Shown: positions 16,395 through 19,943 of the stretch, piece by piece | Layout of the letters: each line of letters starts with the position of its first letter | How positions within the stretch are numbered: position 1 is the first letter of the stretch | Source: an uncultured Planctomycetia bacterium | GTDB taxonomy: Bacteria; Omnitrophota; Gorgyraeia; JABMRN01; RBG-13-46-9 | Length of the DNA: 25,772 nucleotides | Assembly: GCA_964519195.1 (NCBI GenBank) | Contig: CAZFLU010000001.1 | Span: 1-25,772, forward strand | Direction of reading: 5' to 3' | Notes under the pieces: generated by a model | What the model saw: the letters and a program-made list of their open reading frames with translations, nothing else | Told to the model about the DNA's origin: nothing | Databases searched by the model: none | Program-made: the position numbers and the translations under genes

Positions 16395-17444
16395 TCAGAA
16401 CGCGCCAAGCTTCAGGATCTCACTTATGTATCCCAGCATGGCGGCTTTATGCTTCCCGCTTATTTTAAAAGTCAGTATCAATTCTTGACATTCTTTTTCG
16501 AGGCCCGAAATTATATTCTTAATGCATGAAAAGCTTCCGGTCGCTACTATTATCCTACGGATCTTCGCAAGGTCTTTAGCGCTCACCGAATTAGCGGAAA
16601 GTATTTTATTTATAAATGCCTTTTCGCGCCCGGAAGACCTCTCGTAGGCGCAGGCAAGAGGCAAGGTTTTTTTACCTTCTGTAAGGTCAGATATGCCCGG
16701 CTTTCCGGTTTGGCCGTCATTTTCAAAAAGCGCCAAAACATCGTCTTTTATCTGGAACGCCCTTCCGGCCAGAAGTCCCAGCTTTTTCAGTTTCTTTATT
16801 TCCCGATCTTTCGCGCCTCCTAATATCGCGCCGGTTGAAAGGGGGCATATAAAAGAATAATAAGCGGTTTTATGGTCATAGATCCTGTAGATATCAGCCT
16901 CTTTTATATCCTTAATGCTTTCCATTGAAGCCAAAAGTTCCATGAACTGTCCGCTTCCTGTATAAGCAGCGGCCCTTATAAAATCCTTAAGCGCTATTTC
17001 CTTGCGCCCGGCGTCCTCTTCTATAGAAAGAAAGGCCTCTATTGACATTGCGTACATAACGTCGCCGGCGATTATGGAAAGGTCCTTTCCCGTAAAGCGC
17101 GGGCTTTTAGAATGAGCGATAAAAGCGTTAAATTTTTCGTGCATGGAAGGCATGCCGCGGCGCGTTTTGGCATTATCTATTATGTCATCGTGGATTATTA
17201 TGAAATCATGAAGGAGTTCAAGGGCAAGGGCGGAGCGCCACAGGCCGTTTTTTATTTTTTTTGAATAGCTTTTATAGGATAACACAAAAAGGACGGGCCG
17301 CAGCATCTTTCCGTTCTGAAGCACGAATTTCCGAACTTCTTTATAAAGAACGGGCGAAGTTCTTTTCAGCGAATATTTTTTATCCAAAGCCTTTATGAAG
17401 TGTTTTATCTCGAGCTTAAGCCTATTTTTTATTTCATTAATCAT
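16395..17444 (-). CDS. Polyprenyl diphosphate synthase (IdsA/HepT-like)
   Basis: GKMLRP, ELLHDFIIIHDDIIDNAKTRRG (first Asp-rich motif), GQFMEL, KTAYY, FQIKDDVL, GK...SDL.EGKKT. Confidence 0.9.
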   Translation of the reverse strand: MINEIKNRLKLEIKHFIKALDKKYSLKRTSPVLYKEVRKFVLQNGKMLRPVLFVLSYKSYSKKIKNGLWRSALALELLHDFIIIHDDIIDNAKTRRGMPSMHEKFNAFIAHSKSPRFTGKDLSIIAGDVMYAMSIEAFLSIEEDAGRKEIALKDFIRAAAYTGSGQFMELLASMESIKDIKEADIYRIYDHKTAYYSFICPLSTGAILGGAKDREIKKLKKLGLLAGRAFQIKDDVLALFENDGQTGKPGISDLTEGKKTLPLACAYERSSGREKAFINKILSANSVSAKDLAKIRRIIVATGSFSCIKNIISGLEKECQELILTFKISGKHKAAMLGYISEILKLGAF

Positions 17445-17450
17445 ATTTTA

Positions 17451-17460
17451 ATGATATCAT
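17451..17460. promoter_or_regulatory. Palindrome ATGATATCAT forming an extended -10 (TGATATCAT) on both strands; candidate bidirectional promoter
   Basis: Lies in the 54 bp gap between divergent genes. On the - strand TATCAT is followed by exactly 6 nt and then the prenyl synthase ATG. Confidence 0.55.
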
Positions 17461-17498
17461 ATAAGGAAGCCGGGCACAAACATAAAACCCAGATTTAC

Positions 17499-18395
17499 AT
17501 GAAACAATACGTAAAAAATACTTTCATTGCCCTTAGGTTGCCGTTTACAGCGGCCAGCATCCTGCCTTTTTTGGCAGGGTCCTTCATGGGGCGCGACAGC
17601 TTCAACGCTTTAACATTCGCGCTTGGGCTCGCAGCCGTTGTCTTTACGCATCTGGGCGCAAATCTTATAAACGATTATGCTGATTCAAGGTCCGGAGTTG
17701 ACTGGCGGGATAAAAGGCCCCACATATTTTTCGGAGGATCAAAGCTTATACAGGCAGGCATACTATCCGAAAAATGGTATCTAACCGCGTGTATAATTTG
17801 TTTTACAATAGCGTTTTTTTGCGCATTTCTTCTGGCGGGTATCTTAAAGAGCTTATTTTTACTTATTATATATTTGATCATTTTGGCATTAAGCCTTATT
17901 TATTCCATAAGCCCTGTCAAGCTTTCTTATAGGGGCCTTGGCGAGCTTACTGTTTTTTTGTTGTTTGGGCCGGCTGCGGTGATGGGCGGCTATTTCATAC
18001 AGACAGGCATCTTTCTTTCTCCTGAAAGTTTTTTCGTGTCATTACCTTTCGGCTTTTTTACCTGCGCGATACTTTTTACGAATGAAATACCGGATTTTGA
18101 GGATGACGCAAGTTCCGGAAAATTTACCTTAGTAAGTTTATTCGGCAAAAACGCTTCCCGGATCTTATATATTGCGCTTGTAAGCTCGGGTTTTTTATCA
18201 ATTGCAGCGTGCGTCACGGCAGGCTATGTTTCTTTTTTTTCCGCTTTAAGCTTTTTGACCATACCGCTTTTTATAAAAGCCTTTAATATAATCAAGACTT
18301 TTCCTGAAAAAACAGAATTCCAAAAAGCCTCGCGGCTTATTATTTTATCTCAAAGCTTAATAGGGATCATATTAGTAATAGGCGCGATGATATGA
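17499..18395 (+). CDS. menA: MenA/UbiA-family prenyltransferase (DHNA polyprenyltransferase-like)
   Basis: LRLPFTAAS, ANLINDYADSRSGVD, FGGS, YRGLGE, NEIPDFEDD..SGK.TL; multiple TM helices. Confidence 0.85.
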   Translation: MKQYVKNTFIALRLPFTAASILPFLAGSFMGRDSFNALTFALGLAAVVFTHLGANLINDYADSRSGVDWRDKRPHIFFGGSKLIQAGILSEKWYLTACIICFTIAFFCAFLLAGILKSLFLLIIYLIILALSLIYSISPVKLSYRGLGELTVFLLFGPAAVMGGYFIQTGIFLSPESFFVSLPFGFFTCAILFTNEIPDFEDDASSGKFTLVSLFGKNASRILYIALVSSGFLSIAACVTAGYVSFFSALSFLTIPLFIKAFNIIKTFPEKTEFQKASRLIILSQSLIGIILVIGAMI

Positions 18396-19522
18396 CTAGA
18401 GTTGTAATAATAGGATGCGGGTTCGCGGGGCTTACAGCCGCAAGAATGCTTTCCCGCGAAAAAGCTATAAAGCTTTCGGTAATTGACAAGAAAAGGACAT
18501 TTGATTTCCTGCCCATGCTTCCTGATATAATAGGAAGGGAGATCAGGGGAGATTTTCTGAAATGCGACATCCGCAAACTTGCCGGCGGGATCCGATTTGA
18601 GTTTATTCAAGAAGAAGCGCTTGAGATCAATATAGAAAAAAAAGAGGTCAGGACAAGCGCGGGTGCGGTTCCGTATGATTACCTTATTATCTCAAGCGGA
18701 TCGGATACGAATTTCTATGGCAACAACCAGGCTCAAAAAGAAGCTTTTAAACTGGACTCGGTTTACGACGGGATAAAGATAAAAGAAGCGATCAAAAAAA
18801 ATGAGCATGAAAATTACCTGATATCCGGAGCGGGTTATACAGGCATTGAGATCGCCACGAACATGCGCATGTTCCTTGATAAAAACAGAAAAAAAGGTAA
18901 TATAATAATAGTAGAAAAATCCGGGTCAATACTGGGGCCGCTTCCAGAATGGATGAAAGGCTATGTGAATAATAATCTGTCAAAGCTGGCAATAAAAGTG
19001 TTCGCGGAAAAAGCTATCGACAGAATAGATGGTGACAGGGTTTACATTTCCGATGGAAGCGTGTTCAATAGAGCTATGGTAATATGGAGCGCAGGCGTTA
19101 AGACACCGGACCATGTAATGAGTCTTGGGCATGATAAGACGGGGCAGGGCCGGCTTTTCGTGGACAAAACTCTTAAGATCGATGAACATGTTTTTGCAGT
19201 GGGCGATTCCGCTAACGTGATATTTAAAGATAAAGCGTTAAGAATGGCGGTTCAGTTCTCAATAGCCGAAGGCGCCGTAGCGGCTATAAATGTGATAAAT
19301 AGAATAAAAAATAAACCTCTTAAAGATTACAATCCTATTGACCTGGGATACATTATACCAATGGCAAATAATCTTTCATGCGGTATAATCCTTGGGTTAA
19401 AAGTAAAGGGGCGCCTGGCTACAGTTTTACATTACATTATGTGCATATACAGGTCTTGCGGATTGCGAAACAAGCTTGGAATTATCAAGGATCTACTTAT
19501 AGCTAAAGCTTACAGCTTATAG
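18392..19522 (+). CDS. Type II NADH:quinone oxidoreductase family flavoprotein
   Basis: IIGCGFAG FAD motif, F.PMLPDI, YDYLIISSGS, GAGYTGIEIA second Rossmann motif, IWSAGV, VFAVGD. Confidence 0.85.
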   Translation: MTRVVIIGCGFAGLTAARMLSREKAIKLSVIDKKRTFDFLPMLPDIIGREIRGDFLKCDIRKLAGGIRFEFIQEEALEINIEKKEVRTSAGAVPYDYLIISSGSDTNFYGNNQAQKEAFKLDSVYDGIKIKEAIKKNEHENYLISGAGYTGIEIATNMRMFLDKNRKKGNIIIVEKSGSILGPLPEWMKGYVNNNLSKLAIKVFAEKAIDRIDGDRVYISDGSVFNRAMVIWSAGVKTPDHVMSLGHDKTGQGRLFVDKTLKIDEHVFAVGDSANVIFKDKALRMAVQFSIAEGAVAAINVINRIKNKPLKDYNPIDLGYIIPMANNLSCGIILGLKVKGRLATVLHYIMCIYRSCGLRNKLGIIKDLLIAKAYSL

Positions 19523-19544
19523 CTTTTCAGGAAGGGAGGGCGAT

Positions 19545-19943
19545 ATGTTAAAAGAATGGGCAATGTTACCGCTTAGAGTGGGCGTAGGAGCAATGTTCAT
19601 GGCGCACGGGATGCAAAAAGCGTTCGGTCTTTTTGAAGGCCCGGGGATAAAAGGTTTCGCAGGCATGCTGGAGAATCTTGGATTTGCCCAGCCTGAATTT
19701 TGGGCTTATGTAGCGGCATATGTAGAATTATTGGGCGGGCTTTGTTTGATTTTAGGTATTTTTACAAAAGTAGCAGCGATCCTGCTGGCAGCTCTTATTA
19801 CTGTCGCGACCGTAAAAGTCCATCTTAAAAATGGATTTTTCATGGGAAACGGAGGATGGGAATATAATTTTGTGATAATGAGCGCCCTTATAGCGCTTCT
19901 TCTTGGCGGCCCGGGTAAATTAAGCATAAATAGCAAACTGTAA
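19545..19943 (+). CDS. DoxX-family membrane protein
   Basis: LPLRVGVGAMFMAHGMQK, VELLGGLCLILG, VHLKNGFF..GGWEYN. Confidence 0.9.
   Translation: MLKEWAMLPLRVGVGAMFMAHGMQKAFGLFEGPGIKGFAGMLENLGFAQPEFWAYVAAYVELLGGLCLILGIFTKVAAILLAALITVATVKVHLKNGFFMGNGGWEYNFVIMSALIALLLGGPGKLSINSKL

Follow-up and report, generated by a model that had tools for sequence, protein, structure and literature searches.

A conserved gene module for probable NADH-to-naphthoquinol electron transfer

The 25,772-nt contig CAZFLU010000001.1 of an uncultured Omnitrophota bacterium carries a cluster of four genes, for a polyprenyl diphosphate synthase, a MenA/UBIAD1-type aromatic prenyltransferase, a divergent type II NADH:quinone oxidoreductase (NDH-2) and a small DoxX membrane protein. 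The contig (C1, 25.8 kb), referred to here as the window, was analysed in full; it belongs to a metagenome-assembled genome (MAG) of 1.28 Mb in 274 contigs, which is 80% complete and 3% contaminated. The linkage of the four genes goes far beyond chance, and they form one conserved module. On balance it is probable that they encode a self-contained system that passes electrons from NADH to a short-chain naphthoquinone built on a scavenged ring, and that it serves non-respiratory NADH reoxidation or redox balancing.

In the proposed scheme, a dedicated short-chain synthase of the geranylgeranyl diphosphate (GGPP) type would supply the tail, and the MenA/UBIAD1-type enzyme would attach it to an imported naphthoate-type ring, giving an unmethylated, short-tailed quinone resembling demethylmenaquinone-4 (DMK-4). 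The divergent NDH-2 would then oxidise NADH and reduce this quinone, with DoxX as an integral-membrane partner that probably contributes the quinone site. Redox balancing through such a private quinone pool would be comparable to that of Listeria, where Ndh2 restores redox balance with exogenous 1,4-dihydroxy-2-naphthoate (DHNA) independently of extracellular electron transfer (EET) (10.1101/2023.01.13.524026). No published description of the module was found in a literature search.

Linkage and gene fusions

At E<=1e-60 the NDH-2-like protein has orthologues in 52 of the 301 Omnitrophota genomes sampled, nearly all of them from the same class as the window, and a handful of MAGs from Planctomycetota and Verrucomicrobiota have one too. 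The Omnitrophota orthologues cluster in two families, and a search of 13 further genomes from the window's own family found none. When 53 loci were inspected within 2.5 kb of the NDH-2-like gene, the synthase was present at 39, DoxX at 34, a MenA-like gene at 30 and all three at 15. The linkage recurs at protein identities of 38–55% and across many families. Where the cluster lacks MenA, a distant MenA-like gene was found elsewhere in the genome in all 16 cases searched; of 15 such unlinked places fetched, 14 showed an identity of 25–37%.

Two kinds of gene fusion join members of the cluster. NDH-2::DoxX fusions are encoded in Omnitrophota by P0124 (512 aa) and P0104 (504 aa), which are mutually only 50% identical. 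A MenA::NDH-2 fusion occurs once, as a single open reading frame (ORF) of 706 aa in a Planctomycetota MAG (CAZBRH010000071.1; locus L041:378-2498, + strand). The original prediction had treated the genes as one module, and both the linkage kept over the 53 loci and the two fusion kinds bear this out. Just upstream of the MenA::NDH-2 fusion lies a weak DoxX-like ORF; the protein collection does not contain this exact fusion. In two further proteins from ENA assemblies (P0087 and P0245, 505 aa) the NDH-2-like orthologue carries a C-terminal DUF3568 domain and not DoxX.

The NDH-2-like flavoprotein and DoxX

By sequence and by modelled fold the flavoprotein is assigned to NDH-2, and NADH:quinone reductase activity is predicted for it. 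Its best solved relatives are the bacterial NDH-2s of C. thermarum (4nwz, E 2e-20), Bacillus subtilis (YjlD) and Staphylococcus aureus, followed by FSP1. A Foldseek superposition over about 390 columns, in which the fused orthologue P0124 (predicted local distance difference test score, pLDDT, 91.7) stood in for the window protein, gave template-modelling (TM) scores of 0.83–0.85 and root-mean-square deviations of 2.6–2.9 against YjlD (9a63_B) and 4nwz. The NDH-2 fold is thus present with its C-terminal helices and both dinucleotide-binding motifs. The GxGxxG sequences lie at residues 8–13 and 146–151, and the second Rossmann strand is followed by an invariant Glu175. In NDH-2 enzymes a Glu at this place fits the use of NADH.

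The quinone-site motif is different. The AQxAxQ motif, which had been noted from the window as altered to AVQFSIAE, is indeed absent: in the HMMER alignment TAQIAIQHG of C. thermarum stands opposite MAVQFSIAEG of the window protein, with the first Gln conserved and the other motif positions changed. The altered motif is constant in the subfamily (consensus LRMAVQF[AS]IA[QE]G) and is therefore a subfamily trait rather than a lesion of the window gene. Cys330 is invariant in the subfamily and Cys351 nearly so. Compared with the canonical enzymes (C. thermarum, S. aureus, YjlD), the module protein shares the fold (TM about 0.84), the two Rossmann motifs, the NADH-type Glu and the C-terminal helices, but differs in having AVQF[AS]IA[QE] in place of AQxAxQ, an invariant PMANNxSCG motif and an obligate-looking partnership with DoxX. 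Identity to canonical bacterial NDH-2 is only about 22–25%, and the group sits on a long stem in the tree.

The DoxX protein matches its family profile over nearly the full length (Table 1), with R11 and H93 among its invariant residues. Its model (pLDDT 94.7) has the DoxX-family protein NACHO/TMEM35A as best fold match (Z 13.6); a match to the vitamin-K-dependent carboxylase fold (Z 6.7) was rejected, being within the noise for helical bundles. A word-based search with the DoxX part of a fusion returned only the query itself, and no mechanism linking DoxX with quinones or NDH-2 was found in the literature. DoxX is proposed as the quinone-site partner because it is linked and fused to a flavoprotein whose own quinone motif is altered. 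NADH electrons may be routed via DoxX, as first suggested; what DoxX does, which way the electrons run and to what end are all inferred.

The prenyltransferase and the prenyl diphosphate synthase

The MenA-like protein scores 108.7 against TIGR00751 (menA; cut-off 102.15), while the other MenA equivalog models stay under their cut-offs. Both Asp-rich motifs are kept, as NDYADSRSGVD (NDYADxxxGxD) and DFEDD, and UBIAD1 is the only solved relative (E 2e-17). In the window genome, at 80% completeness, this is the sole UbiA-family gene. We infer a naphthoate-type ring substrate, and the length of the tail, from these relationships and from the synthase encoded beside it.

The synthase is, by its sequence features, a short-chain GGPP-type enzyme and not a HepT/DmkB-like one as had been suggested. 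GGPP synthases head its matches in NCBIfam and the PDB, and the HepT model gives 93.6 against a cut-off of 456. Chain length in trans-prenyl synthases reportedly follows a rule, attributed to Ohnuma, Wang and colleagues, that depends on the residue before the first Asp-rich motif. In the window protein this motif is preceded and spanned by LLHDFIIIH-DDIID, with Phe at position -5, and the residue is Phe or Tyr in the alignment of the window synthase with 13 orthologues; under the rule the predicted product is therefore C20 or shorter. In contrast, Ala at -5 and Ser or Thr at -4 are found in the DmkB-like synthase of a Firmicute EET-type locus (L074), in a spirochaete synthase (L058) and in Nqr-linked Omnitrophota synthases. 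A separate IspA-like synthase is present in every genome checked, and the cluster synthase is an extra copy.

In relatives from one family (f7), the synthase orthologue heads an operon with phytoene/squalene synthase (crtB) and IspH, and acts there as crtE, a use that also speaks for a short-chain product. The same family has two split lycopene cyclase halves of about 100 aa near synthase-crtB-ispH (L130:9138-10836, L136, L140 and L141:3399-4000), and its GGPP synthase is common to the carotenoid set and the quinone module. A carotenoid role was rejected as the main reading of the synthase in the window genome, since phytoene synthase was not found there; of 10 cluster genomes, 7 gave no phytoene synthase, among them the window genome and those that are 100% and 97% complete. 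For this reason the MenA-like enzyme is the obvious user of the synthase product in those seven genomes.

Ring pathways and quinol-oxidising partners

No other men or futalosine genes accompany the cluster in the window, as originally predicted, and the same holds for the genome and its relatives within the limits of 80% completeness. Profile searches did not find MqnA or MqnD in the window genome or relatives, MenB exceeded its cut-off in none of 41 relatives, and MenD and MqnC did so in none of the genomes searched. True MenG/UbiE was present in 8 of the 41, none of which is among the five cluster genomes in this set. With ring pathways not found in the genome, the MenA-like enzyme would depend on an imported ring.

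Searches for partners that could oxidise a quinol were also negative. Cytochrome bd, haem-copper oxidase (COX1) and the succinate dehydrogenase/fumarate reductase (SDH/FRD) flavoprotein were not found in the five to eight cluster genomes searched, nor were VKOR, NapC/NrfH-type cytochromes or NrfD. Two of the cluster genomes, G018 (100% complete) and G037 (97%), agree with the window genome on these absences. Elsewhere in the class, other genomes combine SDH/FRD with true MenG, and one of them also has cytochrome bd. With no recognisable quinol oxidase, the module is most likely to serve non-respiratory NADH reoxidation. A full menaquinone pathway and a terminal oxidase, a grouping with housekeeping MenA/Ndh and a linkage that was not conserved would have counted against the original prediction; none of these was seen, as ring pathways and terminal or other quinol oxidases were not found and the linkage is conserved.

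A genome-wide check for ApbE and FMN-binding proteins, which had been called for, found both, and both belong to an Rnf complex. In the window genome (contigs C86 and C245; loci L032 and L033), C86 encodes RnfC-type, RnfD, RnfG and RnfA/E proteins up to the contig end, and an ApbE flavin transferase is encoded on a 1.8-kb contig. The FMN-binding protein is the RnfG of this RnfC-D-G-A/E cluster, and ApbE occurs in genomes with Rnf genes. Nqr was considered as the source of these two genes in the window genome and rejected, given the Rnf genes of C86.

A parallel arrangement is found in two genomes of the window's family (G007 and G005; L023:4969-12361, and L024), where an nqrABCDEF-like operon is followed directly by a MenA-like gene and then by a long-chain isoprenyl diphosphate synthase (IDS) gene. 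No ring pathway, cytochrome bd or SDH/FRD was found in either genome. As in the module, an NADH:quinone reductase is encoded with a MenA-like enzyme and a synthase; unlike the module, the reductase is a six-subunit Nqr-like complex, the synthase is long-chain, the MenA-like protein is about 35% identical and DoxX is lacking. This parallel makes a reductase encoded together with the prenylation of its own quinone a recurring theme of the lineage. The operon itself consists of NqrA/RnfC-like, NqrB, FMN_bind, two Rnf-Nqr subunit and Fer2-FAD-NAD NqrF-like genes.

Organisation of the locus and neighbouring genes

The presence of four clustered genes at this place in the contig was confirmed by the ORF list and by Pfam and NCBIfam profiles, with all four intact (Table 1). 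The menA-like ORF is open from a GTG at nt 17400, and its likely start is the ATG at the coordinate tabulated, 54 bases from the synthase start. The menA stop and ndh start overlap by 4 bases (ATGA), and the remaining genes are spaced by 5–22 bases. A promoter scan of the divergent intergenic region gave no signal above chance, and promoter and terminator scans were otherwise uninformative. Among sequencing runs sharing its words, none of RNA was listed and one of DNA was, a microbial mat metagenome (word share 0.22), which does not enter the evidence.

Table 1. Features of the module in the window (nucleotide positions in CAZFLU010000001.1)
Feature	Position	Strand	Basis
Polyprenyl synthase, short-chain GGPP-type trans (predicted)	16395..17444	-	PF00348, 175 bits; divergent from the other three genes
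Divergent intergenic control region, synthase / menA-like (putative)	17445..17498	.	54 bp, from sequence
MenA/UBIAD1-type aromatic prenyltransferase, 298 aa	17499..18395	+	PF01040, 100 bits; TIGR00751
Divergent NDH-2-type NADH:quinone oxidoreductase (predicted), Pyr_redox_2, 376 aa	18392..19522	+	NDH-2 are the best PDB matches
Quinone-site motif, altered to AVQFSIAE (NDH-2-like protein, residues 286-293)	19247..19270	+	Alignment with C. thermarum NDH-2
DoxX four-helix membrane protein, putative membrane partner of NDH-2	19545..19943	+	PF07681, 77.6 bits (cut-off 23.6), profile positions 2-84 of 85

DoxX is followed without gaps by genes for a pyruvate kinase (342 aa), a DUF748 protein and pilin-like proteins. 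Since the genome is compact and these downstream genes are gap-free, adjacency alone carries little weight. The pyruvate kinase (nt 19949-20977, + strand) consists of the barrel domain only and lacks the C-terminal regulatory domain, matching positions 2-337 of the 476-position TIGR01064 and 6-342 of 477 in NF004491; a short pyruvate kinase, 54% identical, also lies 3' of DoxX in one relative (L160). On the other side, downstream of the synthase, a cupin gene (125 aa, nt 16031-16408, - strand) overlaps the synthase stop by 14 bases, and homologues 55–57% identical occur near MenA-like genes at L030 and L161, though not at most loci. Neither the cupin nor the pyruvate kinase gene is counted as part of the module, since each was within 2.5 kb at 2 of the 53 loci. 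The coupling to fermentative NADH disposal that had been read from the adjacent pyruvate kinase gene is not upheld by so rare a neighbour.

The DUF748 (AsmA-like) protein (285 aa, nt 20974-21831, + strand) is encoded just downstream of the pyruvate kinase. Homologues lie 2–3 kb from the module in three relatives (L132, L140 and L144), and one stands directly beside an unlinked MenA-like gene at L170. This recurrence may hint at lipid or quinone transport. Other genes found 3' of DoxX are single cases: a rhodanese beside an NDH-2::DoxX fusion (L021:4081-4446), and a hemerythrin and a pyrimidine-dimer DNA glycosylase (L020:3867-4409 and L036:6552-7016).

Alternative functions and related systems

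Several observations weigh against the proposed NADH-to-naphthoquinol function. The altered quinone motif could mean that the flavoprotein has a different substrate. An adjacent DoxX is missing at about a third of the loci and an adjacent MenA at nearly half. The MenA-like protein barely exceeds its curated cut-off, and the synthase misses all NCBIfam equivalog cut-offs, its product being deduced from motif and matches. The window genome, on which the absences partly rest, is only 80% complete, and no quinol-oxidising partner that could act as the sink of an NADH outlet was found in the cluster genomes searched. All members of the module are known from genes alone.

The principal competing explanation, which is judged unlikely, is a membrane antioxidant or oxygen-scavenging system, in which the quinol would trap lipid radicals or react with O2 or other oxidants and would be regenerated by the NDH-2-like protein with NAD(P)H. 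The model is the animal pair UBIAD1 and FSP1 (AIFM2), together with GGPP: a MenA-family enzyme joins an imported naphthoquinone ring to a C20 tail, and an NDH-2-family NAD(P)H:quinone reductase keeps the product reduced outside the respiratory chain. FSP1/AIFM2 is among the best sequence and fold matches of the flavoprotein, the prenyltransferase has UBIAD1 as its sole solved relative, the tail is predicted to be C20, and searches of cluster genomes turned up no quinol oxidase. In single relatives the cluster adjoins a gene for hemerythrin, for rhodanese or for a UV-damage glycosylase, and the DoxX of Mycobacterium tuberculosis is part of an oxidative-stress complex. However, bacterial NDH-2s outscore FSP1, the stress-related neighbours are single cases, and nothing ties expression to oxygen. 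The likeness to the animal system is one of family and logic only; the DoxX partner is absent in animals, and the module is without evidence of an antioxidant role. The chemistry, NADH to quinol, is the same as in the redox-balancing function favoured here, and the two differ only in purpose.

It is less probable still that the NDH-2-like protein is a biosynthetic reductase, one that would supply either the ring or its prenylated form as a quinol, in the manner of NdbB/NDC1 or of the need of UBIAD1 for menadiol. The MenA::NDH-2 fusion in the Planctomycetota MAG favours such a step, as do the coupled menA and ndh genes of the window (ATGA) and a precedent from the phylloquinone (vitamin K1) pathway, where the type II NAD(P)H dehydrogenase NdbB/NDC1 is functionally connected with MenA and with a C20 tail (PMC5299476); a C20-type tail is predicted here as well. 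In that pathway the reduction serves methylation by MenG, but true MenG was not found in the five cluster genomes among the 41 relatives, and an NdbB/NDC1-type step would therefore lack its follow-on enzyme. The fusion is also a single instance, while NDH-2, DoxX and IDS stand together at many loci with MenA elsewhere.

The original prediction compared the cluster with a split form of the Listeria EET quinone core. That the module is a true homologue of flavin-based extracellular electron transfer (FLEET) and sends electrons to acceptors outside the cell is very improbable, although the two systems are alike in design. The FLEET core of Listeria, Lactiplantibacillus and Clostridia (Ndh2, DmkA and DmkB) also clusters an NDH-2 with a MenA-type enzyme and a prenyl synthase, and the same trio is found in EET-type loci of the present set. 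It serves a private, unmethylated naphthoquinone pool, as is proposed for the module, and its ring can be scavenged as DHNA, as in Lactiplantibacillus (PMC9888254) and as suggested here. In FLEET, Ndh2 is joined to an apparent DoxX/DoxD-clan domain; the module encodes DoxX on its own, and some relatives have it fused to the NDH-2.

This domain was examined in EET-type Ndh2 proteins. The Firmicute EET-type locus L074 encodes an Ndh2 of 677 aa, a long-chain IDS, NusG_II, Hpre_diP_synt_I and ApbE, and the C-terminal 280 residues of its Ndh2 form a widespread conserved domain that Pfam leaves unannotated at threshold. Among 21 EET-type Ndh2 C-terminal domains, 18 matched DoxX, 17 MauE and 9 DoxD at E<=1 (best 8e-6), all sub-threshold, and almost no other membrane family matched; we take DoxX, MauE and DoxD to form one Pfam clan. 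In an Atlas cluster of Bacillota NDH-2, DoxD is present on 28% of members. A direct hhalign comparison of the DoxX profile with the domain gave an insignificant probability of 2–8%. The Ndh2 membrane domain had been described as DoxX-like; the consistent sub-threshold matches and the Atlas cluster support this, the hhalign result (8% at best) does not, and the domain is probably a DoxX relative. The NDH-2::DoxX fusions of Omnitrophota fit the view that DoxX takes the place of this domain.

Descent is another matter. In the NDH-2 tree, which holds the L074 Ndh2 as comparator in place of a labelled Listeria sequence, the PVC-group proteins (support 100) and the EET-type Ndh2 proteins (98) form separate clades with no sister relation resolved, either to each other or to other NDH-2 groups; the module flavoprotein is accordingly not an orthologue of EET Ndh2, and the likeness is one of design, with descent not shown. 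The synthase belongs to a different chain-length class (GGPP type, not HepT-like), the quinone motif is altered, and the host is a member of the PVC group. EetA/EetB, PplA and FmnB were likewise not found: an EetB-like gene (PF07456) was absent from the matches in 8 cluster genomes, the window shows none of these parts, in line with the earlier statement on PplA and FmnB equivalents, and no PplA-like gene was seen near the clusters examined, though PplA has no model and no dedicated search for it was made. ApbE and FMN_bind proteins, as described above, are those of Rnf. Omnitrophota, as part of the PVC group, are presumed diderm, and a Gram-positive EET route would for this reason not reach the outside. 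Of the comparison with the Listeria core the architecture therefore stands, while common ancestry, the synthase type and the pyruvate kinase connection do not.

A Spirochaetales MAG (QKCC01000201.1; L058:601-4710) encodes in a row a long-form Ndh2 of 732 aa, a long-chain synthase and a UbiA protein. No EetA, EetB or ApbE gene lies within the 6.7 kb fetched, and the locus looks like an EET-type quinone core minus the export parts.

A sulfur- or thiol-linked quinone oxidoreductase, resembling DoxDA, sulfide:quinone reductase (SQR) or the mycobacterial SodA-DoxX-SseA system, is also very improbable. The placing of DoxX in the DoxD clan, the rhodanese 3' of one NDH-2::DoxX fusion, and the invariant Cys330 and nearly invariant Cys351 of the flavoprotein would fit it. 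In sequence, however, the matches of SQR and flavocytochrome c are confined to the N-terminal Rossmann part, and by fold both come after NDH-2; the DoxD model (NF041179) gives 21 bits against a cut-off of 300, the scans of neighbouring ORFs with Pfam and NCBIfam gave no DoxA-type match, and the rhodanese neighbour is a single case. Finally, housekeeping MenA and Ndh genes of a normal menaquinone respiratory chain are scarcely tenable and already contradicted by the present genomes, since none of the same-class genomes with true MenG and SDH/FRD, one of them also with cytochrome bd, carries the cluster, and the cluster genomes that are 97–100% complete lack every marker searched.

Implications

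Redox balancing through a private naphthoquinol pool is thus the function preferred here. A bolder form of it is put forward tentatively and is in itself doubtful: non-respiring, ultra-small Omnitrophota would possess an autonomous NADH-to-naphthoquinol system that takes its ring from neighbours or hosts and uses DoxX as the quinone-handling subunit of NDH-2, its electrons passing to a partner cell, to oxidants or to an acceptor in the periplasm.

DoxX is a very widespread membrane family whose biochemistry is undefined, and the module offers it a testable function; if the proposal is true, this large family would gain a defined biochemical role. The probable relationship of the EET-type Ndh2 membrane domain to DoxX suggests a link between two previously unconnected systems. 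Under the bolder proposal, PVC bacteria and Gram-positive EET systems would each have arrived separately at the combination of NDH-2, a DoxX-clan domain and a private quinone. It follows as a warning that 'EET genes' (Ndh2, DmkA, DmkB) in metagenomes cannot be scored by family membership alone.

For the Omnitrophota, where a phylum overview gives quinone synthesis only per pathway module (PMC10066038), the proposed function would explain the quinone-related genes in many genomes that look purely fermentative or acetogenic. It would also point to a dependence on other organisms for the ring precursor, which fits a host- or community-dependent life.

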